Source of the DNA: Patescibacteria group bacterium
Lineage (GTDB): Bacteria; Patescibacteriota; Patescibacteriia; Patescibacteriales; JBAZCA01
Assembly: GCA_041671125.1 (NCBI GenBank)
Contig: JBAZCA010000003.1
Coordinates: forward strand, 64,689-128,688
Direction of reading: 5' to 3'
Length of the DNA stretch: 64,000 nt
The notes under the pieces are model-generated. The model was not told where the DNA came from, did no database searches, and saw nothing but the letters and a program-made list of their open reading frames with translations. Below, piece by piece: positions 607 through 63,088 of the stretch (the first letter of the stretch is position 1; every line of letters starts with the position of its first letter). Position numbers and translations under genes: made by a program.

Positions 607-1671
607 ATGAAAAAAATACCTTTAATTCTAAACAAACGGCAGGAAAATATTTTAGATCTTCTTTCCGGCGGGAAGCCGCTTAAAATCTCCGGGATAATTT
701 CGGGGTTAAAGACCGCTTATTCCGGAACGTCAAAAATTACGATTAACCGGGACTTAAAAACTCTCATTGCGTCCGGTTATGTAATTAAAAAAGGCAAAGC
801 CAGAGCCACGGTTTACGAGTTCTCTTCCTCTTATAATCTTCTCCGTTCCGTTGAAGTTAAAAAATATTTCAGCGTTCCGGCCGATAAAAGGGAGGCGAAA
901 GAAAAATTTGATTTCAATATTTTTTCCCTGCTTAAAAATATTTTTACCGGAGAAGAAGAAAAATATCTTTATTCGCTTAACGGCGAATACCGGGACAACC
1001 TGAAAAGAATTTCTCCGGCTATCGCGAAGAATGAGCTTGAAAGGCTGATTATTGAGTTAAGCTGGAAATCTTCGCGGATTGAAGGCAATACTTATTCGCT
1101 CCTTGAAACCGAGGTTCTGATAAAAGAAAAAAAAGAGGCCAAGGGGCATAACAAAGAAGAGGCGATTATGATATTAAACCATAAGGAAACTCTGGATTAT
1201 ATTATTAACAATAAAAAAATCTTCAATAATGTCTCAACCGCCAAAATAGAGGATATTCATTATCTCCTGACGAAAAACCTCGGGATAGCGAAAAATTTAA
1301 GAAAATCGGCCGTCGGAATTGTCGGTACAAAATACCGGCCGCTGGATAACCAGCATGAAATCCGCGAAGCCATGGGAAAAGCCTGCGGAGTAATAAACCG
1401 GGAAAAAAATCATTTTGCCAAAGCGCTCGTCTTGTCGCTTTTAATCGCCTATATCCAGCCGTTTGAAGACGGCAATAAGAGGACGAGCCGCCTGTCCGCT
1501 AATGCCGTCCTGTTAGCCAATAATATTTGTCTGCTTTCCTACCGAAACGTGGACGAAGTGGAATACAAAAAAGCCGTTATTTTGTTTTATGAACAAAACA
1601 ACCTGAGTTATTTTAAAAGGCTTTTTATTGAACAGTCTGAGTTCGCCGTAAAAAATTACTTTAAAGCCTGA
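607..1671 (+). CDS. Fic/DOC family protein with N-terminal winged-HTH-like region and a variant Fic motif
   Basis: Fic core motif region reads IQPFEDGNKRTSRL (canonical HxFx[DE]GN[GK]RxxR). The N-terminus NILDLLSGGKPLKISGIISGL is HTH-like. Confidence 0.8.
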   Translation: MKKIPLILNKRQENILDLLSGGKPLKISGIISGLKTAYSGTSKITINRDLKTLIASGYVIKKGKARATVYEFSSSYNLLRSVEVKKYFSVPADKREAKEKFDFNIFSLLKNIFTGEEEKYLYSLNGEYRDNLKRISPAIAKNELERLIIELSWKSSRIEGNTYSLLETEVLIKEKKEAKGHNKEEAIMILNHKETLDYIINNKKIFNNVSTAKIEDIHYLLTKNLGIAKNLRKSAVGIVGTKYRPLDNQHEIREAMGKACGVINREKNHFAKALVLSLLIAYIQPFEDGNKRTSRLSANAVLLANNICLLSYRNVDEVEYKKAVILFYEQNNLSYFKRLFIEQSEFAVKNYFKA

Positions 1672-3383
1672 GAGGCAAAAATTCGCTTCACCATATACGT
1701 CTTATTCAACCTATATCCGAGCTTCCGGTAATACCCTCTCGCTCCGATTCCGGAAATAATCATCATTTTTTTAAAACCATTTTCCCGGGCGATTTTTTCC
1801 GCCTCGGCTAAAAGCAGTTTACCAAGGCCTGAATGCTGAACCCGGCCCGCTTTCCCAACCGGCGCCAACTCGCCGTAAACATGCAGTTCTCTTATAATCG
1901 CGGGATTGTCAGATAATAATCCATACTTCTTGTTAAGTCGGGTTGTAAGTTGCGAGTTGTGAGATATGGAAATATTGTTATGAGTTGCGAGTTGTGAGAT
2001 ATGAGTTATGAGATATGAGTTATGAGACAGCCTTAACCTACAAAACCCGTATAACACCTTTTTATCTTTGGACTCAACACTAATAAAATACTCCTCTCCA
2101 TCCGAAGCCTGATAACTCTTAATTCTTAATTCGTAATTTTTAATTCTTAATTCCTTCGGCTCTCGGCATCTTATGCATCGGCATTCCGCGCCCGAATCGG
2201 CCATCACCTGCCTTAAGTTAGTAATCTTATTGCCGGCCATAATTGACTCGCCCGGAATATCGCGGATCAATCTTATTATCCGGACGTATTCGGGCACGGC
2301 CTTTTTACAGTCTATTATCAGCTGGCGCAAAACCTTATCCCCATACGGCTTATATTTTCCGGCTTTCCACCACCGATAAAGCAAACTGCCGCGGGTAACG
2401 ACAGTCGGATAGAATTTAATCTGGTCCGGCTGGAACCGCGAATCATTAAACAGCGTTTTAAACATGACTAAATCTTTTTTGGCGGTCGCTCCGGGCAGGC
2501 CGGGCATGAGATGATAAGTCACTTTAAAACCAAAATCTTTTAATAACTTTGTCGCCTTAATGATCGCCGCTACGCCATGCCCGCGCCTGTTTAACTTCAG
2601 GATTTTATCGTCAATCGCCTGAATGCCTAATTCCACCCTCGTGCATCCGAGCTCGCGCATTTCCCATAATTCTTTTTCATCAATATAGTCCGGCCGGGTT
2701 TCAAGGGTCAGGCCGATAATTTTATACTTCGCTTTTTCGTTTTTCTTTTGCTCATTCAGCATCGTCATCCTGAGCGTAGCGAAGGATCTCGAGTTAGCGC
2801 GCTCAATGCGGGATTCTTCCCCGCCGAATCGGCGAGTCAGAATGACGGCAGAAGTATATTCATTCGCCGCCCGAAAGCACTCTTTTACGAACCAATATTT
2901 ATACTTCTCCGGCAGAACCGACCAGGTTCCGCCAATAACAATCAGTTCAATTTTCGTCGGCTCGTGCCCGTTCGCTTCTAACGCTCTAAGCCTCAGCTGA
3001 ACCTGCAAGTAAGGATTATAGTTACAGCGAATCGCCCGCATTACTGCCGGTTCATTGGAGAGATAACTCTGCGGGACGTCTTTTTCCGTCGGGCAATAGG
3101 CGCATTTGCCCGGGCAGGCGTAAGGCATGGTAAGAACCGCCACCGGAGCGATACCCGAGAGAGTCCGGACTTCGCGCTTACGGAGCAGACGGCGCAGGCT
3201 GGCGGACAAACCGGATTTACCGGCGCCGTATTCCTTTAAAATGTCGGAATTTTTTAACATGGCCAGATTATTTTTCCTCGCGATAATTCTCTTAGCCGCC
3301 ATTAACTCTTTAGCCGAATTTATCGGCATTTTTATCAGTTCTTTTACTGCTGACCGGACTTTTTTCTCCGCTAGGTTTTCCAT
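1656..3383 (-). CDS. elp3: Elp3-like radical SAM / GNAT acetyltransferase (tRNA U34 cm5 modification family)
   Basis: Radical SAM cluster CPGKCAYCP, ELGIQ and IRELHVYG motifs, and a C-terminal GNAT segment QHSGLGKLLLAEAE...GYYRKLGY. The 575 aa include three repeat-derived inserts. Confidence 0.85.
   Translation of the reverse strand: MENLAEKKVRSAVKELIKMPINSAKELMAAKRIIARKNNLAMLKNSDILKEYGAGKSGLSASLRRLLRKREVRTLSGIAPVAVLTMPYACPGKCAYCPTEKDVPQSYLSNEPAVMRAIRCNYNPYLQVQLRLRALEANGHEPTKIELIVIGGTWSVLPEKYKYWFVKECFRAANEYTSAVILTRRFGGEESRIERANSRSFATLRMTMLNEQKKNEKAKYKIIGLTLETRPDYIDEKELWEMRELGCTRVELGIQAIDDKILKLNRRGHGVAAIIKATKLLKDFGFKVTYHLMPGLPGATAKKDLVMFKTLFNDSRFQPDQIKFYPTVVTRGSLLYRWWKAGKYKPYGDKVLRQLIIDCKKAVPEYVRIIRLIRDIPGESIMAGNKITNLRQVMADSGAECRCIRCREPKELRIKNYELRIKSYQASDGEEYFISVESKDKKVLYGFCRLRLSHNSYLITHISQLATHNNISISHNSQLTTRLNKKYGLLSDNPAIIRELHVYGELAPVGKAGRVQHSGLGKLLLAEAEKIARENGFKKMMIISGIGARGYYRKLGYRLNKTYMVKRIFASQALK
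1941..2028. repeat. Low-complexity tandem repeats inside the elp3 coding sequence
   Basis: agttgcgagttgtgagatatg occurs at 1948-1968 and 1983-2003. agatatgagttatg occurs twice in tandem at 1997-2024. Minus-strand translation is SHNSYLITHISQLATHNNISISHNSQLTT. Confidence 0.85.
2116..2154. repeat. Low-complexity repeat (ttaattc/ttaattcgtaat type) inside elp3
   Basis: Sequence ctcttaattcttaattcgtaatttttaattcttaattcc, translating to ELRIKNYELRIKSY. It resembles the intergenic aattacaaatt / cgtaaatt repeats elsewhere in the window. Confidence 0.7.
2764..2846. repeat. Palindromic repeat family B copy (GTCATCCTGAG...CTCAGAATGAC) lying in frame inside elp3
   Basis: Its termini and inner GAAGGATCT / GGATTCTTC arms match the copies at 39689-39767, 43402-43491 and 61867-61955. 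The ORF is uninterrupted across it. Confidence 0.85.
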
Positions 3384-7368: not shown

Positions 7369-7455
7369 ATCTTAAATTGCCAATTTACAACTTACAATTT
7401 TCAAATTTTTTTCTTTCATTTGGCAATCGTAAATTGACAATCGTCAATCTCTATG

Positions 7456-7527
7456 TGCCCCTGCCAGGATTTGAACCCAGGACCCGACGTCCGAAGCGTC
7501 GTGTGATATCCATTTCACTACAGGGGC
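7456..7527 (-). tRNA. tRNA-Arg (TCG)
   Basis: Reverse complement is GCCCCTGTAGTGAAATGGATATCACACGACGCTTCGGACGTCGGGTCCTGGGTTCAAATCCTGGCAGGGGCA. Anticodon loop CTTCGGA. Confidence 0.85.
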
Positions 7528-7762: not shown

Positions 7763-8047
7763 TTAAATTTTACCTTTTAACGCGTCTTTTAAAGTCTTGC
7801 CGGTTTTAAATTTAGCTACCGTCACTTCGGGAATCTGGATCCTTTCGCTCGGTTTCTGCGGATTGACGCCGCCGCGCGAATGGCGCTTTCTCGGGATAAA
7901 AGTCCCGAAACCGGCGATCCGGACTTCGTTGCCGGCTTTGAGTTCGCTGATAATTACTCTGACTAACGCCTCAAGCATGGCTTCGGCGTCTTTTCTCGTA
8001 GACGGCGCTTCGGCCGCGATCTTCTCTATTAGCTGGGCTTTATTCAT
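7763..8047 (-). CDS. hup: HU family DNA-binding protein
   Basis: 94 aa. MNKAQLIEKIA...GFGTF...R.GRNP-like arm (RHSRGGVNPQKPSERIQIP). Confidence 0.9.
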   Translation of the reverse strand: MNKAQLIEKIAAEAPSTRKDAEAMLEALVRVIISELKAGNEVRIAGFGTFIPRKRHSRGGVNPQKPSERIQIPEVTVAKFKTGKTLKDALKGKI

Positions 8048-8144
8048 AACGCGTAACCCATAACGCGTAACCCATAACGATAACGATTATCAAGAAAGTC
8101 ATCCAAGATTCGTTATGCGTTACGCGTTTAACGTTATGCGGTAT
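8045..8144. repeat. Long imperfect hairpin built from short tandem motifs (ataacgcgtaaccc / cgttatgcgttacgcg)
   Basis: The left arm 8045-8085 is largely complementary to the right arm 8111-8144. It fills the ymdB stop to hup start gap. Confidence 0.75.
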
Positions 8145-9047: not shown

Positions 9048-10562
9048 TTATCGCGCGTATTCAATCACCCGCATTTCCCGTATAACATTCACTTTTATTT
9101 CTCCCGGGTATTTAAGCTCTTCTTCAATTTTTCTGGCGACGTTCCGGGCGAGATTATAGGCTTCAACGTCGTTCACGGTTTCCGGGGTAACGAAGATCCG
9201 GACCTCGCGTCCGGCCTGGATGGCGTAAACTTTTTCCACCCCCGGGAAAGAGGCCGCGATCCGTTCCAGCTCCTCAAGCCGCTGTAGATACCGCTCGTAG
9301 GTATCGCTCCGGGCGCCCGGCCGGCTGGCTGAAATCGCGTCAGCCACTTTTACGATTACCGCGATAAGACCTTTCGGCCGGTCATCATGGTGGGTTTCAA
9401 TCGGGTCAATTAATTCCTGGGGCAGGTTAAATTTTCTCGCGATATCGCGCCCGATTTCCGGGTGGGTGCCTTTAACTTCATGGTCAACGGCTTTGCCGAT
9501 ATCATGCAAAAGTCCGCTCTTCTTCGCCAAAGTTACGTCCGCCCCTAATTCTTCGGCGAGCAAAGCGGATAAATGCGCCACTTCAACCGAATGGTGCAGG
9601 GCGTTCTGTCCGTAGCTGGTCCGGTATTTTAACCGACCGAGAATCTGCGTTAGTTTAGGGTCCAGTCCGGCGACGCCGACGTCAAACGTGGCCGCTTCTC
9701 CGGCTTTCTTTATATCAATCGCGAGCTCCCTTTTTGACTCCTCAATCGCGTCTTCAATCTTGGTCGGATGAATCCGGCCGTCAAGGATGAGCTTGTCCAG
9801 AGTTTTCTTCGCGATGTGCCTTCTAATCGGCGAAAATCCGGAAATGGTAATGGCGTTCGGCGTATCGTCAACGATAATTTCGGTACCGGTAAGTTTTTCA
9901 ATGGTTTTTATGTTCCTGCCTTCGCGGCCGATAATCCGGCCTTTCATTTCGTCGCTTGGGAGGTCAACGACCGTAGTGGTCACTTCCGGGGTGTAAGTGG
10001 AAACAAGCCTTTGCATGCTCTCGGCCATTAAATTCCTCGCCCGCTCTTCCCAGACCTCGGTGGACTCGCATTCCAGCTTATGGATACGAACCATTAAATC
10101 TTCTCTGGTCTGTTCTTCAACTTTTTTAAAGAGTTCTTCCCGGGCCGCGTCTTTGTCCATGCCGGCGATTTCCTCAAGCTTCTTCATCTGCTCAACTTTA
10201 ATCTCGCCGACTTTAGCTTTTATTTCCTCTACCCGGCTCACTTTGTCGTAAAGGGACTGCTGTTTTTCCTGCAACTCCAAAAGTTTCTGCGAAAAAACGT
10301 TTTCCCGTTTTTCCAGCCGCGATTGCACGCCCTTAATTTCCTGGCGGCGATGCTCTTCGTCCCTTTTCGCGTCTTCAATAATCTTTAACGCTTTGTCCTG
10401 GGCTTTTAAAAGCACTTCGGTGTGCTTTGATTTTGCTTCGTTTAAAATCTTTTCAGCTTTATCTTCGGCTCCTTTAACCCTTTTGGCGGTCTGTCTTTTG
10501 TTCGTGTAAAAACCGGCGAAAAAACCGGCCACCGCCAGTATCGCCGCTATCAAATATTCCAT
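9048..10562 (-). CDS. rny: Ribonuclease Y
   Basis: N-terminal TM helix, coiled coil, KH domain (GRIIGREGRNI) and HD domain (LLHDIGKA). Confidence 0.9.
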   Translation of the reverse strand: MEYLIAAILAVAGFFAGFYTNKRQTAKRVKGAEDKAEKILNEAKSKHTEVLLKAQDKALKIIEDAKRDEEHRRQEIKGVQSRLEKRENVFSQKLLELQEKQQSLYDKVSRVEEIKAKVGEIKVEQMKKLEEIAGMDKDAAREELFKKVEEQTREDLMVRIHKLECESTEVWEERARNLMAESMQRLVSTYTPEVTTTVVDLPSDEMKGRIIGREGRNIKTIEKLTGTEIIVDDTPNAITISGFSPIRRHIAKKTLDKLILDGRIHPTKIEDAIEESKRELAIDIKKAGEAATFDVGVAGLDPKLTQILGRLKYRTSYGQNALHHSVEVAHLSALLAEELGADVTLAKKSGLLHDIGKAVDHEVKGTHPEIGRDIARKFNLPQELIDPIETHHDDRPKGLIAVIVKVADAISASRPGARSDTYERYLQRLEELERIAASFPGVEKVYAIQAGREVRIFVTPETVNDVEAYNLARNVARKIEEELKYPGEIKVNVIREMRVIEYAR

Positions 10563-10835: not shown

Positions 10836-10916
10836 AGCATTTCCGAAAACTTCCTCTAATAACAGACATTTTTATTAATTACTGTATTTAAGCTACCATA
10901 TCGCCTTACTTTTGAC

Positions 10917-11050
10917 AAGTTAATTTGCGTGCGAGCAAACCTGCCTGCCGGCCCGCTTCGCCGGAGCGAAAGCGAGGCGAGCAGGCAGGTTATCCCGAAC
11001 CCGCCGAATCGGCGGGCGGGGATCTCTCGTGCACGCAAATTAATTTGACT
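10917..11050. repeat. GC-rich palindromic repeat family A, full copy with terminal inverted repeats
   Basis: The left end aagttaatttgcgtgcgag is inverted at the right end ctcgtgcacgcaaattaatttgactt. The core 10921-10990 matches the reverse complement of 480-548. An internal hairpin cccgccgaatcggcggg is present. Confidence 0.8.
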
Positions 11051-21674: not shown

Positions 21675-24281
21675 ATGACATTCCGCAATTTAGCCAATAA
21701 AACCCGAACCAGCCAAAATTGGCGGGACGGGAAAAAATATTACGTAAACAGCTGTCCGGGGGATACCCGGCGGAAAAAAAACGTTTCCGTCTGGGCGCTT
21801 CTCCTTTCCCGGCGGATGCTCAGGGCTTATTCCTACCTGATTATCGGCGGCGGAATTTTAATGTTCATCACCTTGGCTTTATTGTCCCGCGATCTGCCTG
21901 ACCCGAACCGGCTCATAAACAGAGAGATAGCCCAAAGCACGAAAATTTACGACCGGACCGGCGAAACCGTGCTTTACGAAGTTTTCGGGGATGAAAAAAG
22001 GACCTCAATAAAATTAAATGAAATTCCTGACTACGTAAAAAACGCCACTATCGCTATTGAGGATAAGGATTTTTACAAACACGGCGGCATAAGCCTTTGG
22101 GGCATTTTCCGCGGCGTAGTTTTAAGGGTGCTCTCCGGTAAATCGCCGCAGGGAGGTTCAACGCTTACCCAGCAATTCATTAAAAACGCCATCCTGTCGC
22201 CGGAACGCTCGCCCGTCCGCAAATTAAAAGAATGGATTTTGGCTTATCGGATTGAAAAAATATTTACCAAGGACGAAATCCTGCAGATGTACTTTAATGA
22301 AATCCCTTACGGATCAACGGCTTACGGCGTGGAATCGGCCAGCCAAAAATACTTTGGCAAAAGCGCTAAAGACGTAAGCCTGGCCGAAGCGGCCATTCTC
22401 GCCGCCCTGCCCCAGGCGCCGAGCAAATACTCGCCCTATGGTCCAAACTCTGAACTTTTATTCGGCCGCCAGCATTACATTTTAGATAAAATGGTAGAGC
22501 AAGGTTACGCCACCGAAGACGAAGCCGAGGCCGCCAAAAACGAAAAATTGGTTTTTCGCGAACAGGACAATAATATTCTTGCCCCGCATTTTGTCATGTA
22601 CGTAAAATCAATCCTCTCGGAAAAATACGGGGAAAAAATGCTGGAACAGGGCGGACTAAAAATCTATACCACCCTGGATCTCTATAAGCAAAAAGCGGCC
22701 GAAGACGCCATAACCGAAAGAATGCCATCTAACCAGTCAAGATACGACGCCTGGAACGCTTCCCTGGTTTCCATTGACCCAAAAACCGGCCAGGTTCTCG
22801 CCATGGCCGGCTCAAAAGATTATTTCGGCAAATCCGAACCCGAAGGTTGCGTCTCCGGAAAAAACTGCCACTTTGAGCCAAAAGACAACGTCAGCCTGCG
22901 GCCCCGCCAGCCTGGATCATCCTTAAAGCCGCTGGTTTACGCCACTTCATTTTTAAAAGGCTACACCCCCGAAACGGTTCTTTACGACGTTAACACTAAC
23001 TTTTCAAACGACCCCGCCAATCCTTACGAACCGCGAAACTATAACTTAAAAGAACATGGCCCGGTAACCATGCGCCAGGCGCTGGCCGGCTCCTTAAATA
23101 TCCCGGCCGTAAAGGCAATTTATCTCGCCGGCATAGATAATGTCCTTGACGTGGCGAATGACATGGGCTATTCCACCCTAAAAGATAAAGATCGTTTCGG
23201 CCTGTCACTAGTTTTGGGCGGTGGCGAAGTAAAACTTCTAGAACACGCGAACGCTTACGGAGTTTTTGCCCGGGACGGCGTTTATCACCCGATTTCGGTA
23301 ATCCTAAAAGTTGAAGACAAAGACGGCAAAACGCTTGAAGAGTTTAAAAACGAAGAAAAGACAATCTTGAGTTCGCAGACCGCCCGCCAGATCAACAGCA
23401 TTCTTTCCGATAATAGCGCCCGCTCTTTTATTTTCGGCTCGGATAATTTTCTTACTCTCGGCAGCCGGCCGGTCGGCGCGAAAACCGGAACCACCAACGA
23501 TTATCATGACGCCTGGACTTTGGGTTTTACGCCCTCGCTCGTCGCCGGAGTTTGGGTCGGCAATAACGATAACTCGGCCATGCGCCGCGGAGCGGACGGC
23601 TCGGTTGTCGCCGCGCCGATCTGGAACGCTTACATGAAAAAAGTTTTGGGCGACACGCCGGTGGAATATTTCAAAGAGCCGGATAAAACTCCGGCCGGGA
23701 AACCGGTTTTGGACGGAAATACCGGCGGAGAAACAACCGTAAAAGTTGATAAAATTTCCGGCCTGCTCGCGACCGAATTCACTCCGCCGGAACTCGTTGA
23801 AGAACGAACCTACAAATCCGCCCATTCCATCCTTTATTACGTTAACAAAGACGACCCCCGGGGAAAATACCCGGAACACCCTCAGGATGATCCGCAGTTT
23901 AACTTATGGGAGAGCGCGGTTTTAAACTGGGCGGACCGTTCTAATTTCGCGAGCTCAACGCCGCCGACCGAGAACGATAATGTCCATCGCCCGGAAAACC
24001 TTCCCCAAATTAACGTCACAGACTTTAACGACGGCCAAACTGTTACAAACCCGGATTTAACTATTTCCGTAAATCCCCAGGCGCCCCGCGGCATTGCCAA
24101 GGTGGAATATTATTTTGACGGCGTCCTCGCGAGCGCGGTAAACCAATATCCTTTTAGCCATAATGGCAATATTAGCTTTTTAACCAACGGCTACCATAAA
24201 TTAACCATCCGCGCCTGTGATGACGCGGAAAATTGCTCCAGCGTGGATTTTAACCTGATCGCGAGCTTCAGCTCGCGCTAA
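21675..24281 (+). CDS. Class A penicillin-binding protein (glycosyltransferase GT51 + transpeptidase)
   Basis: GT51 motifs EDKDFYKHGG, GGSTLTQQ and RKLKE. Transpeptidase motifs SSLKP, SLN and KTGTT. The exact start is uncertain. Confidence 0.9.
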   Translation: MTFRNLANKTRTSQNWRDGKKYYVNSCPGDTRRKKNVSVWALLLSRRMLRAYSYLIIGGGILMFITLALLSRDLPDPNRLINREIAQSTKIYDRTGETVLYEVFGDEKRTSIKLNEIPDYVKNATIAIEDKDFYKHGGISLWGIFRGVVLRVLSGKSPQGGSTLTQQFIKNAILSPERSPVRKLKEWILAYRIEKIFTKDEILQMYFNEIPYGSTAYGVESASQKYFGKSAKDVSLAEAAILAALPQAPSKYSPYGPNSELLFGRQHYILDKMVEQGYATEDEAEAAKNEKLVFREQDNNILAPHFVMYVKSILSEKYGEKMLEQGGLKIYTTLDLYKQKAAEDAITERMPSNQSRYDAWNASLVSIDPKTGQVLAMAGSKDYFGKSEPEGCVSGKNCHFEPKDNVSLRPRQPGSSLKPLVYATSFLKGYTPETVLYDVNTNFSNDPANPYEPRNYNLKEHGPVTMRQALAGSLNIPAVKAIYLAGIDNVLDVANDMGYSTLKDKDRFGLSLVLGGGEVKLLEHANAYGVFARDGVYHPISVILKVEDKDGKTLEEFKNEEKTILSSQTARQINSILSDNSARSFIFGSDNFLTLGSRPVGAKTGTTNDYHDAWTLGFTPSLVAGVWVGNNDNSAMRRGADGSVVAAPIWNAYMKKVLGDTPVEYFKEPDKTPAGKPVLDGNTGGETTVKVDKISGLLATEFTPPELVEERTYKSAHSILYYVNKDDPRGKYPEHPQDDPQFNLWESAVLNWADRSNFASSTPPTENDNVHRPENLPQINVTDFNDGQTVTNPDLTISVNPQAPRGIAKVEYYFDGVLASAVNQYPFSHNGNISFLTNGYHKLTIRACDDAENCSSVDFNLIASFSSR

Positions 24282-39688: not shown

Positions 39689-39767
39689 GTCATTCTGAGG
39701 GCAAAGCCCGAAGAATCTCGTCATAAGCGCGCTAATACTCGGGATTCTTCGCTTCGCTCAGAATGAC
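39689..39767. repeat. Palindromic repeat family B copy
   Basis: gtcattctgagggcaaagcccgaagaatctcg...cgggattcttcgcttcgctcagaatgac. Confidence 0.85.
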
Positions 39768-43011: not shown

Positions 43012-43193
43012 ATTGGTTTAGCTTATTTAATGAGTTAACTGACTGTATTAAGTATATCAGTTTTTTTATATTTATCAAGAGGAAAATTCCTGAAATATTC
43101 CTCCCGCGTTCCTTGACATTCAAGGCCAATTGGCCGAAAATAGAGGAATACTTGGAAAATCGTAAATTGGCAATTGTAAATTGTAAATTAAAT

Positions 43194-43278
43194 GGGCGAG
43201 TGGTGAAACTGGCAGACACGCATGCCTTAGGAGCATGTGGGGCAACCCGTGGAGGTTCAAGTCCTCTCTCGCCCACCA
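43194..43278 (+). tRNA. tRNA-Leu (TAG), CCA encoded
   Basis: GGGCGAGTGGTGAAACTGGCAGACACGCATGCCTTAGGAGCATGTGGGGCAACCCGTGGAGGTTCAAGTCCTCTCTCGCCCACCA. Confidence 0.9.
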
Positions 43279-43366: not shown

Positions 43367-43401
43367 GAAAAGTTTGTAGATTATCCGACAACTCCTTTTT
43401 T

Positions 43402-43491
43402 GTCATCCTGAGCGGAACGAAGTGAAGCGAAGGATCTGCAACCTTGGCTAAATCCGCAGACGCAGATTCTTCGCCTTCGGCTCAGAATGAC
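43402..43491. repeat. Palindromic repeat family B copy
   Basis: gtcatcctgagcggaacgaagtgaagcgaaggatctgc...gcagattcttcgccttcggctcagaatgac. The flanks ttatccgacaactcc / (rc) are shared with the copy at 61867. Confidence 0.9.
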
Positions 43492-43605
43492 AATTGTTGC
43501 ACAGTCTGCATCCCGCTCATAAAAACAACTCTACTTGACATTCTTTTTTTCTTGTGTTAGTGTAGTAATACATTAATACAGACATGCCAACAATAAAACA
43601 GTTTT

Positions 43606-46029: not shown

Positions 46030-46343
46030 GAATAATATATTCTGACAATGATTCCCTTAACTCACGATAGATTTATAAATGACCATTAATATAGACACAG
46101 CTTATCCACAGCTTAATCAAAACTTAATAAAAAATAAATACTTTGCTAATATTAGCCAAAATAGTTAAAAACTATTTTACTTCCTTCCACGGTTTTTCAC
46201 ACTTATCTCCAGCTTATCAACAGCTTAACCAGAGGTTAATTTTTATCTAATTTTTGACTTATGTCCAGAAAACTCTGGACATAAAAACCCGACTTATCCA
46301 CATCTCAATTAACAATGCAAATTGACAATTGTCAATTCCCGTG

Positions 46344-46415
46344 TGTCCTCAACAGGAATCGAACCTGTATCTAGGGCTTAGGAGTCCCTTGTTCTATCCA
46401 TTAAACTATGAGGAC
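46344..46415 (-). tRNA. tRNA-Arg (CCT)
   Basis: Reverse complement is GTCCTCATAGTTTAATGGATAGAACAAGGGACTCCTAAGCCCTAGATACAGGTTCGATTCCTGTTGAGGACA. There is one A/G mismatch at the base of the anticodon stem. CCA is not encoded. Confidence 0.75.
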
Positions 46416-61828: not shown

Positions 61829-61866
61829 CCTTAGATTGTCCGAGAACTACTTTTTTGTCATCCTGA

Positions 61867-61955
61867 GCGGAACGCAGTGAAGCGAAGGATCTGCAAACTT
61901 GGTAAAATTCACAGACGTAGATTCTTCGCCTTCGGCTCAGAATAATAATTGTCGG
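61867..61955. repeat. Palindromic repeat family B copy (3' terminus degenerate)
   Basis: gtcatcctgagcggaacgcagtgaagcgaaggatctgc...tagattcttcgccttcggctcagaataat. About 90% identical to 43402-43491. Confidence 0.9.
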
Positions 61956-62477: not shown

Positions 62478-62539
62478 AAAAATTTTGTAAAATTCCATAA
62501 CCCATAACGCTATTCTTAAATAAAGAAATTTTATGGGCT

Positions 62540-63088
62540 ATGAGTTATGAGATACGGGAAAATATGGACAGCCAAAAACTAAACGAATTCATCACCAAGG
62601 TTGATAACATGAAAAAGCAGGACAAAATGGATTTGTCTTCGGATCAGGATTTATCAATCGCCATAATGAACCTCGTTAGCATAGAGGAACATTTCTTTTT
62701 TACCGGCGCCAAGCTCGGAAAACCGGAATATTTTGATTTACTGCAGGAGGCCCGGGCTATGCGCGGCGATCTTTTGCGGAAAATCGTAAAGAATCCGCGG
62801 GGTGAAGAATGGTGCATCAGTAAACATCTCCTCGCCGCTTCCATGCGCTTAATGGAAGTCGGGACCAAACAGCATAAAATGGGCAGAAAGGAAGACGCCG
62901 AAGATTTATTTCAAAAAGCTTACGACCTTTATTCTCTTTTTTGGGGTATTAACCTGAAAGTAATTGACGCCGAAGGAGTTAAAAAAATTGACGAAGGCGC
63001 GGTTAATAAACATGATAAGGAAAAAAAGGGGTTCATGGGCAAACTCGGGGAACTCGTTAAAAAGGCGATTGATTGCTGTATAGAATAA
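62540..63088 (+). CDS. Hypothetical protein
   Basis: 182-aa helical ORF ending in CCIE. The first codons (atgagttatgag) are part of a low-complexity repeat, so the true start may be the ATG at 62564. Confidence 0.5.
   Translation: MSYEIRENMDSQKLNEFITKVDNMKKQDKMDLSSDQDLSIAIMNLVSIEEHFFFTGAKLGKPEYFDLLQEARAMRGDLLRKIVKNPRGEEWCISKHLLAASMRLMEVGTKQHKMGRKEDAEDLFQKAYDLYSLFWGINLKVIDAEGVKKIDEGAVNKHDKEKKGFMGKLGELVKKAIDCCIE

Follow-up and report, generated by a model that had tools for sequence, protein, structure and literature searches.

An in-frame palindromic repeat in a hypervariable linker of a patescibacterial Elp3

How does a palindromic repeat come to lie in frame within the gene of a conserved tRNA-modifying enzyme? 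This question is raised by a 64,000-nt stretch of DNA from a Patescibacteria group bacterium (contig JBAZCA010000003.1, positions 64,689-128,688; G+C content 43%), hereafter the window, whose own numbering is used throughout and to which our repeat inventory refers. In this window, the gene for Elp3, a radical-SAM and GNAT enzyme for tRNA U34 modification (1656-3383, minus strand; 575 residues), contains an 83-nt palindromic element (2764-2846, minus strand). We consider it likely that a non-coding hairpin repeat has become fixed here in a permissive surface linker of Elp3, where it is tolerated as a passenger and probably translated, and that it resembles the REPINs, i.e. paired and inverted repetitive extragenic palindromic (REP) sequences. 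The arguments for this reading come from the intactness of the gene, the nature of the site, the replacement of other repeat DNA at this site in close relatives and the recurrence of such replacements in Elp3 of the candidate phyla radiation (CPR, Patescibacteria).

The open reading frame (ORF) is intact and the product is a bona fide Elp3 with no sign of decay. The protein scores 539.8 bits against TIGR01211 (cut-off 350 bits), has the Pfam domains Radical_SAM, Radical_SAM_C and Acetyltransf_1 (GNAT) in the radical-SAM/C-terminal GNAT architecture of the family, and carries the Fe-S cluster motif CPGKCAYC at residue 90 as well as the acetyl-CoA-binding motif (Q/RxxGxG) as QHSGLG at residue 516. 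It matches the Elp3 of Dehalococcoides in the PDB (DmcElp3) with E = 1e-113. All 157 columns that are invariant in an alignment of 101 Elp3 sequences are retained, as must be the case given that this alignment includes the window protein itself. The AlphaFold2 model has a mean predicted local distance difference test score (pLDDT) of 81.7 and target-normalised template modelling (TM) scores of 0.88-0.90 against solved Elp3 structures; model confidence is low only in two linkers, and the fold is preserved. Gene decay, which an initial annotation of this DNA had held out as a possibility, is thus not borne out by the motifs, the family score or the model. Moreover, the identical protein is present under two NCBI accessions (MFA6393511.1 and MFA6928101.1) on two contigs, annotated as Elp3 from a Patescibacteria metagenome-assembled genome (MAG), which argues against a one-off assembly artefact, and the synteny of Elp3 with a DUF8173 neighbour is conserved.

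The element (GTCATCCTGAGCGTAGCGAAGGATCTCGAGTTAGCGCGCTCAATGCGGGATTCTTCCCCGCCGAATCGGCGAGTCAGAATGAC) begins with the left terminus GTCATCCTGAG and contains the inner arms GAAGGATCT and GGATTCTTC, as originally described; its right terminus, previously given as the family form CTCAGAATGAC, reads GTCAGAATGAC and deviates from the consensus by a single mismatch. Together with base 2763, the element encodes residues V180 to T207 (VILTRRFGGEESRIERANSRSFATLRMT), exactly the in-frame peptide proposed earlier. Two modules surround a variable core. Module A, which is 5' in the sense of the gene (2813-2846, minus strand; GTCATTCTGACTCGCCGATTCGGCGGGGAAGAATC), was delimited by a scan for half-modules and by alignment, and has the stem ATTCT/AGAAT and a hairpin with an enlarged, GC-rich loop. 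Module B (2764-2788, canonical on the plus strand; GTCATCCTGAGCGTAGCGAAGGATC) has the stem ATCCT/AGGAT, tandem G.A pairs and a GCGTAGC mini-hairpin. The core between them (2789-2812) has a centre containing AGCGCGCT, and in the alignment this centre is similar to the core of an intergenic copy of the element, referred to as copy 2.

The 28 residues lie in a hypervariable linker, linker 1 (residues 177-211; 2751-2855, minus strand), between the radical-SAM helix 159-175 and the helix preceding strand 221-229. In phmmer alignments, residues 176-213 correspond to residues 109-119 of DmcElp3 (5l7j) and to residues 142-147 of M. infernus Elp3, leaving approximately 27 extra residues in the window protein. 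Linker 1 comprises 5-10 residues in solved Elp3 structures as opposed to 23-54 residues in the 120 best-scoring CPR orthologues (aligned with MAFFT; length counted from a conserved Asn to a conserved Glu/Gln), among which it has no conserved sequence. The mean pLDDT rises along linker 1 from 59 (residues 181-190) through 75 (residues 191-200) to 95 (residues 201-210), and the model places the element's last residues, ATLRMTM, at the start of the conserved helix (here residues 201-215) that precedes strand 221-229. In TIM barrels and radical-SAM proteins, the helix-to-strand connections generally face away from the catalytic loops. Because linker 1 is a helix-to-strand connection of the barrel, it is expected to lie on the face opposite the catalytic loops.

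Comparison with close relatives shows that the element is a replacement of other filler in a hypervariable linker and not a simple insertion. The closest orthologue (P0002; DNA, L001) is 75% identical and has near-identical flanking DNA (TGCTTTCGGGCGGCGAATGAATAT ... GAGCAAAAGAAAAACGAAAAA). The intervening sequence is 102 nt long in the window, where it includes the element, and 87 nt long in L001, where it is unrelated and contains the 7-nt tandem repeat GTAACTCATAACTCAAAACTCATAAC. The net change in the linker relative to this orthologue is therefore only about +5 residues; the figure of about +27 residues holds only relative to the Dehalococcoides and archaeal Elp3. Relative to solved Elp3 structures, the segment is an extra stretch in a surface connection, in line with the initial annotation, but it is not a clean insertion of about 28 residues, the CPR linker being long already. 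A second swap is evident from a pair of proteins that are 89-90% identical and have identical flanks, in which AAAATCC-type heptamers in one gene (P0085/L127) face a 107-nt palindrome in the other (P0089/L128).

Linker 1 has probably been filled in this way more than once. A palindrome with a peptide of the form VIL...RMT is present at linker 1 in 11 of the 120 best CPR Elp3, distributed over at least seven scattered lineages, and apart from a close sister sequence of each carrier, the orthologues most similar to the carriers are non-carriers. The DNA of the Elp3 genes L005, L006 and L128 contains full palindromes of 86, 116 and 107 nt, respectively, and the hairpins of the genic copies in L006 and L005 are strong (z = -8.5 and -3.7, respectively). 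When 216 elements were ranked by similarity to the core of the genic copy in the window, copy 2 from its own genome ranked first, while the Elp3 copies of L005 and L006 ranked 112 and 214; the rarer flank variant C|GTCAT..ATGAC|G is likewise common to the genic copy and copy 2. On the 3' side, the junctions vary, with RMT being followed by 3, 4, 8 or 9 residues before the conserved Glu. In other orthologues, linker 1 holds palindromes of other families (VIP.. and ..LAMT). The scattered carriers, the unrelated cores, the varied 3' junctions and the several families together lead us to favour repeated independent colonisation. On this view, linker 1 is a recurrent sink in which palindromes and 7-nt tandem repeats swap between close relatives.

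We suggest the following scenario for the origin and persistence of the element. A REPIN-like repeat, consisting of two inverted TGTCAT-tagged modules around a variable core, would have landed in an Elp3 linker that tolerates almost any sequence, either as a non-autonomous hairpin element or as a recombination product of one. Travelling as a passenger from then on, it would be transcribed as part of the gene and most likely also translated, giving 28 residues that are predicted to be partly disordered and partly helical and the last of which, ATLRMTM, would stand in for the start of the helix before strand beta-3. The element would persist because the linker would be on the side of the radical-SAM barrel opposite the catalytic face, because the termini are free of stop codons in two of the three frames and because selection would retain only those copies that have a stop-free core. 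Subsequently, the genic copy would drift, with loss of hairpin strength in the case of the window copy, and at linker sites palindromes and slippage-prone heptamers would overwrite each other. Translation of the segment and neutrality of the insert are what the sequence data lead us to infer. As to the mode of spread, we favour mobilisation as single-stranded hairpin DNA by an enzyme that would act in trans, or recombination with other copies in the genome. The ORF families shared among 120 eight-kb loci around elements comprise only common ones, i.e. response regulators, histidine kinases and ABC ATPases as judged from sequence, and loci with multiple copies hold phage tail genes or a protein that reads as a HicB-like antitoxin. 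No RAYT (REP-associated tyrosine transposase) gene was seen near elements, the search being confined to the ORFs of these loci.

The distribution at linker 1 might alternatively go back to one ancient insertion in an ancestral CPR Elp3 that was inherited vertically, lost or overwritten repeatedly and homogenised by gene conversion to the copies of each genome. Such a history, which we regard as unlikely, agrees with the orientation of module A, which comes first in all three carriers whose DNA orientation was examined (the window, L005 and L006), and with the pairs P0010/P0013 and P0067/P0089, which show vertical inheritance within small clades. Several further points speak for it and at the same time weigh against independent colonisation of a tolerant surface linker: all 11 carriers have the palindrome in the same frame; most of them have the same 5' junction, two residues past N-D/E-Y/F; and no other family member accompanies the Elp3 copy within approximately 20 kb in L005 and L006, so that re-insertion by chance would be improbable without a strong filter for permissive sites or without targeting. 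The shared frame and 5' junction also fit a site-specific mechanism. Our preferred reading also has against it that the lead of copy 2 as the best match to the genic core is small (score of 9.0 vs 7.5); that the exposure of linker 1 is deduced from alignment, topology and pLDDT rather than calculated from coordinates; and that an all-against-all BLAST of 2,653 ORFs from the 120 loci around elements gave no recurrent transposase-like ORF family. A single ancient event is, nevertheless, less easily reconciled with carriers scattered among more similar non-carriers, with cores unrelated between lineages, with the different distances from RMT to the conserved Glu, and with the presence of other families at linker 1 and of at least three families in two frames at the second linker described below.

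The same data bear on the remaining explanations. If the peptide or the mRNA hairpin had been co-opted for a function in Elp3, for instance by providing an interaction surface, pausing translation, offering an RNase site or controlling expression, the repeated use of one linker in several lineages, the confident helix modelled for the 3' part of the element (pLDDT 95, residues 201-210) and the strong hairpins still present in the L006 and L005 genes would be accounted for. We find this improbable, because the filler is interchangeable with unrelated tandem repeats between orthologues of 75-90% identity, the peptide evolves faster than the remaining protein (73% vs 90% identity between P0067 and P0089), the genic hairpin in the window is the weakest of all and most orthologues lack any palindrome. 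Removal of the element from the transcript or the protein, in the manner of an intron or intein, is a far more remote prospect. Excised rRNA insertions are known in Patescibacteria, and the terminal inverted repeats with their hairpin potential are the only possible processing mark here. By contrast, every genic copy seen is in frame and free of stop codons in an otherwise intact gene, the intergenic copies in the window have stops in five or six of the six frames, a pattern expected from a constraint of translation, no Rfam intron family is found in the window and no Pfam intein domain in Elp3, and 83 nt are far too short for a self-splicing element. We attach equally little weight to the idea that the gene is a decaying pseudogene or that an assembly artefact collapsed a repeat into the ORF. 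Repeats are classic sites of misassembly, and of the four copies it is the genic one that has degenerated most; against this, the ORF is full length with both catalytic motifs and the family-invariant residues, the same protein recurs on a second contig under a second accession, comparable copies are found in frame in other samples that were assembled independently, and the DUF8173 synteny is conserved. Colonisation of a permissive linker by a hairpin repeat thus remains the explanation that we prefer.

What kind of repeat is the element? Besides the genic copy, the window contains three intergenic copies: copy 2 (39689-39767, plus strand; 79 nt), a near-perfect hairpin (z = -7.3) and the nearest relative of the genic copy; copy 3 (43402-43491, minus strand; 90 nt; z = -6.3), located downstream of a tRNA gene; and copy 4 (61857-61946, minus strand; 90 nt; z = -3.9), with a degenerate right terminus (..GAATAAT). 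All three had been spotted in the initial annotation, the last with coordinates approximately 10 nt too high. The genic copy forms a far weaker hairpin (z = -2.0 on the mRNA strand) than the intergenic copies, all three of which are near-perfect hairpins. The terminus motif has eight matches in the window vs 0.56 expected, a number reached in none of 100 shuffles, and a stricter scan for paired termini recovered two elements vs 0.08 in shuffles. The half-module scan detected both halves of the genic copy and of copies 2 and 3 and only the left half of copy 4, and found no convincing element in the 64 kb beyond these four. One of the eight matches to the terminus motif, at 23881, is due to chance, as it lies within an 869-residue ORF and has no surrounding palindrome. 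Three of the six frames of the genic copy are open, including the one used, while none, one and one are open in copies 2, 3 and 4, respectively; genic copies are thus a subset filtered for the absence of stops, as expected if they are translated. Copies 3 and 4 have in addition 90% identity across 121 nt (43377-43497 and 61832-61952), which includes 25 nt of left flank (TAGATTrTCCGAsAACTmCTTTTTT) and AATTGT on the right; the repeated unit of this subfamily is therefore asymmetric and longer than the palindrome.

We scanned GTDB, with one genome per species, for the pattern GTCATYCTGAG-N55-85-CTCAGRATGAC, which gave at least 120 loci and 128 elements among the matches listed. These 128 elements have a common layout, (T)GTCAT-YCT-GAG-[loop, mostly CGNAGC]-GA-AGR-AYC, followed by a variable palindromic core and the mirror image, and all of them, as well as the four window copies, consist of two inverted stem-loop modules of 25-35 nt around the core. 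Terminal inverted repeats are 11-12 nt long. The family spans 77-116 nt; the listed GTDB elements are 77-107 nt long and distributed evenly over the three classes modulo 3. Each half forms its own hairpin, composed of ATYCT, a tandem G.A pair, GC, a GNA loop, GC, a tandem G.A pair and AGRAT (GTCATYCTGAGCGNAGCGAAGRATC), the centre of which corresponds to the GCGNAGC mini-hairpin (PMC13037366); the same mini-hairpin is found in the AAGCGnAGCGC loop of enterobacterial REPs (PMC2817692). Of 221 halves, 217 have an outer Y that is complementary to the inner R, and 74 of 74 do so among the 42 elements whose halves differ (Fisher p = 1e-52). Pairing within each half-module thus accounts for the seeming mismatches in the long hairpin, and a strand-specific RNA reading based on G.U pairs is rejected. 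A scan of viral contigs with a pattern in which the three stem positions were free on either side (GTCATNNNGAGCGNAGCGANNNATC) gave 164 distinct instances, of which 155 have all three pairs as Watson-Crick pairs, with nine triplet types. Such compensatory covariation means that structural constraint acts on the stem-loop while it is single-stranded.

No target-site duplication was seen at the four window copies, and among 179 elements, direct repeats of 1-8 nt occur at or below the frequency expected by chance, while the palindrome extends one base beyond the termini, as T..A, in approximately 83%. At the 5' terminus, the stop-free readings are GTC-ATY-CTG (VIL) and (T)GT-CAT-YCT-GAG (CHPE or CHSE), the third frame meeting TGA; at the 3' terminus they are CTC-AGR-ATG-AC (LRMT) and CAG-RAT-GAC (QND or QDD), and again the third frame meets TGA. 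The idea that only one frame is open can be discarded, since each terminus has two open frames out of three and different genes make use of both.

The termini occur in more than 15 bacterial phyla among the matches listed, including Bacteroidota, Acidobacteriota, Chloroflexota, Verrucomicrobiota, Planctomycetota, Pseudomonadota, Bacillota, Actinomycetota, Gemmatimonadota, Nitrospirota, Synergistota, Cyanobacteria/Melainabacteria and Patescibacteria. Full GTCAT palindromes are also present on 43 viral contigs from IMG/VR (L130-L172). On several of these, pairs of palindromes approximately 1.3 kb apart lie between phage tail genes (e.g. L135, 3242-4675; L153, 5173-8506), the tail ORFs being tape-measure-like and chaperone-like as judged from sequence. 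Phages are possible vehicles of spread between phyla. Rfam 15 at gathering thresholds reported eight tRNAs and no other family across the whole window, and at E<=10 the surroundings of copy 2 gave a single, meaningless 12-bit snoRNA match; a protein-database search with a 96-residue concatenation of three element peptides had no matches. In the searchable literature, we found no description of the element or of in-frame palindromic elements in the CPR, the terminus and core strings matching only primers and unrelated constructs.

Elp3 has a second site of this kind. Linker 2 (residues 454-482, HNSYLITHISQLATHNNISISHNSQLTTR; 1938-2029, minus strand), in a hairpin of the GNAT domain, consists of an in-frame tandem repeat with a period of 7 (Tandem Repeats Finder periods 7, 14 and 35; heptamers GTTATGA/TGAGATA). 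Residues 453-483 correspond to residues 366-373 of DmcElp3, i.e. there are 23 extra residues, and the pLDDT is about 54. The heptamer family has 20 matches in the window vs 1.07 expected and is also intergenic (4633, 8043-8126, 21653 and 62494-62558). Since 7 is not divisible by 3, a single heptamer unit gained or lost would shift the reading frame of Elp3. At linker 2, related palindromes are found in 10 of the 120 CPR Elp3, from at least three other GTCAT families and in two frames, with the peptides CHCEERSDEAIS..LAMT, VIPASEP..GMT and VISS..VEMT.

In-frame elements are not confined to Elp3. Among the listed GTDB matches, approximately 4 of the 128 elements sit in frame within real genes, three of which were checked. 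One lies in LepA of Magasanikbacteria (CPR; L120, 1071-1147) and contributes CHPERSEGS...PPQNDS within the GTP_EFTU domain; the others are in a SpoU methylase and in a giant planctomycete protein with a Polysacc_deac_1 domain. In 120 CPR LepA orthologues (P0121-P0240), the hairpin loop of the G domain between RMxY and YILNLIDTPGH has 0-4 residues in most cases and is expanded by about 8 to 45 residues in about 25, with peptides from GTCAT palindromes (P0121, P0129, P0133-P0135, P0137, P0138 and P0204) or heptamer repeats. Because this loop has the same two classes of filler, Elp3 is one instance of a general CPR pattern. The initial annotation had considered an in-frame palindrome unusual for this lineage; the counts for both Elp3 linkers and the LepA loop show otherwise. 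It is possible, and we put it forward tentatively, that Patescibacteria systematically draw on intergenic palindromes and 7-nt repeats to build and rapidly exchange surface linkers of core enzymes in a cassette-like manner, with the palindrome representing an undescribed, pan-bacterial and structurally constrained hairpin superfamily. The enzymes concerned would be Elp3 (two linkers), LepA (G domain) and probably more. In a separate case, an in-frame element in an Opitutaceae MAG of 67% G+C (L102, 1636-1729; CHSERSEES...FFASLRMT) links a xylose-isomerase-like TIM-barrel ORF to a UbiA prenyltransferase ORF in a stop-free frame of 825 codons; this could be a read-through fusion or merely a long open frame in G+C-rich DNA.

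To our knowledge, the colonisation of conserved genes by in-frame palindromes is textbook material only for Rickettsia and a few other intracellular bacteria. The Rickettsia palindromic elements (RPE) were reportedly described by Ogata et al. in 2000. As reviewed in PMC3184786, they are short palindromes found between genes and in frame within conserved, functional genes, at positions compatible with the fold, to which they add a few dozen residues. The parallel with RPE drawn in the initial annotation holds up at the level of behaviour: a multi-copy palindrome, some copies in frame, has colonised a conserved and apparently functional gene at a fold-compatible site that is a short surface connection in solved Elp3. 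We do not claim membership, since the host belongs to the Patescibacteria and not to the Rickettsiales and a sequence relationship to RPE-1 to RPE-8 is not established. Moreover, the element described here is shorter (77-116 nt), has two covarying modules and termini in more than 15 phyla and, as seen at the DNA level in two pairs of close relatives, replaces other repeat filler in a pre-existing linker.

With REPs, REPINs and their RAYT transposases (PMC3116915, PMC2817692, PMC3733652), the element shares an imperfect hairpin unit of 20-35 nt under structural constraint and with a conserved 5' tag, the arrangement of two inverted units around a spacer and the lack of target-site duplications. 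However, its tag is (T)GTCAT rather than GTAG or CGTC, and its terminus is cross-phylum and genic while REPs are usually lineage-specific and extragenic. Because of the different tag, and because no associated enzyme was found at the element loci, we describe the element as REPIN-like and do not file it as a REPIN. [quoted passage not shown] The element has the structure of a MITE, being small, non-coding and multi-copy with terminal inverted repeats; by contrast, QMITEs are 150-400 bp long and have direct repeats at their ends, whereas our element has no known parent insertion sequence and fails as a classical cut-and-paste MITE for want of target-site duplications in the 179 elements. Finally, tandem repeats in Borgs create disordered protein regions (PMC9879509), and as in the heptamer fillers of Elp3 and LepA, fast-evolving repeat DNA at intergenic and genic sites thereby makes low-complexity segments. 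Here, however, the repeats are bacterial, have a 7-nt period, which keeps the frame only in multiples of three units, and alternate with palindromes.

In-frame colonisation by palindromes is, thus, now seen in a free-standing radiation of bacteria with tiny genomes, in which the same two loops of Elp3 and one loop of LepA have been refilled repeatedly with whichever repeat family the genome carries. For reduced genomes, this may be a simple route to generate and renew disordered linkers. It also advises caution, in that what looks like a lineage-specific 'insertion' in a CPR protein may be repeat DNA and not an adaptation, and heptamer repeats in essential genes carry a risk of frameshifts. 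The covarying stem-loop module is common to many phyla and viruses and yet lacks an Rfam entry or a description in the searchable literature.

Minor observations concern the surroundings of Elp3 and other repeats in the window. Elp3 and a convergent ORF (607-1671, plus strand) share 16 nt (1656-1671) at their 3' ends, and in the translation of that ORF we noted by eye the Fic-type motif FEDGNKRTSRL. A third repeat family forms a 75-nt inverted pair (480-554 and 10916-10990; 96% complementary) with a CCTGCCTGC...GCCGGCAGGCAGG hairpin plus GTTTGCTCGCACGCAAAT, which flanks a 10-kb segment holding Elp3. Each copy is followed by a -35/-10-like sequence (TTGACT or TTGTCA ... TATGAT) and lies upstream of an ORF (607-1671, plus strand; 9048-10562, minus strand). 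Lastly, AATCGTAAATTGACAATCGTCAAT-like repeats (7425-7448, 43158-43181 and 46313-46336) directly adjoin the tRNA genes at 7456-7527, 43194-43275 and 46344-46415, respectively, and may be a shared promoter or terminator module.

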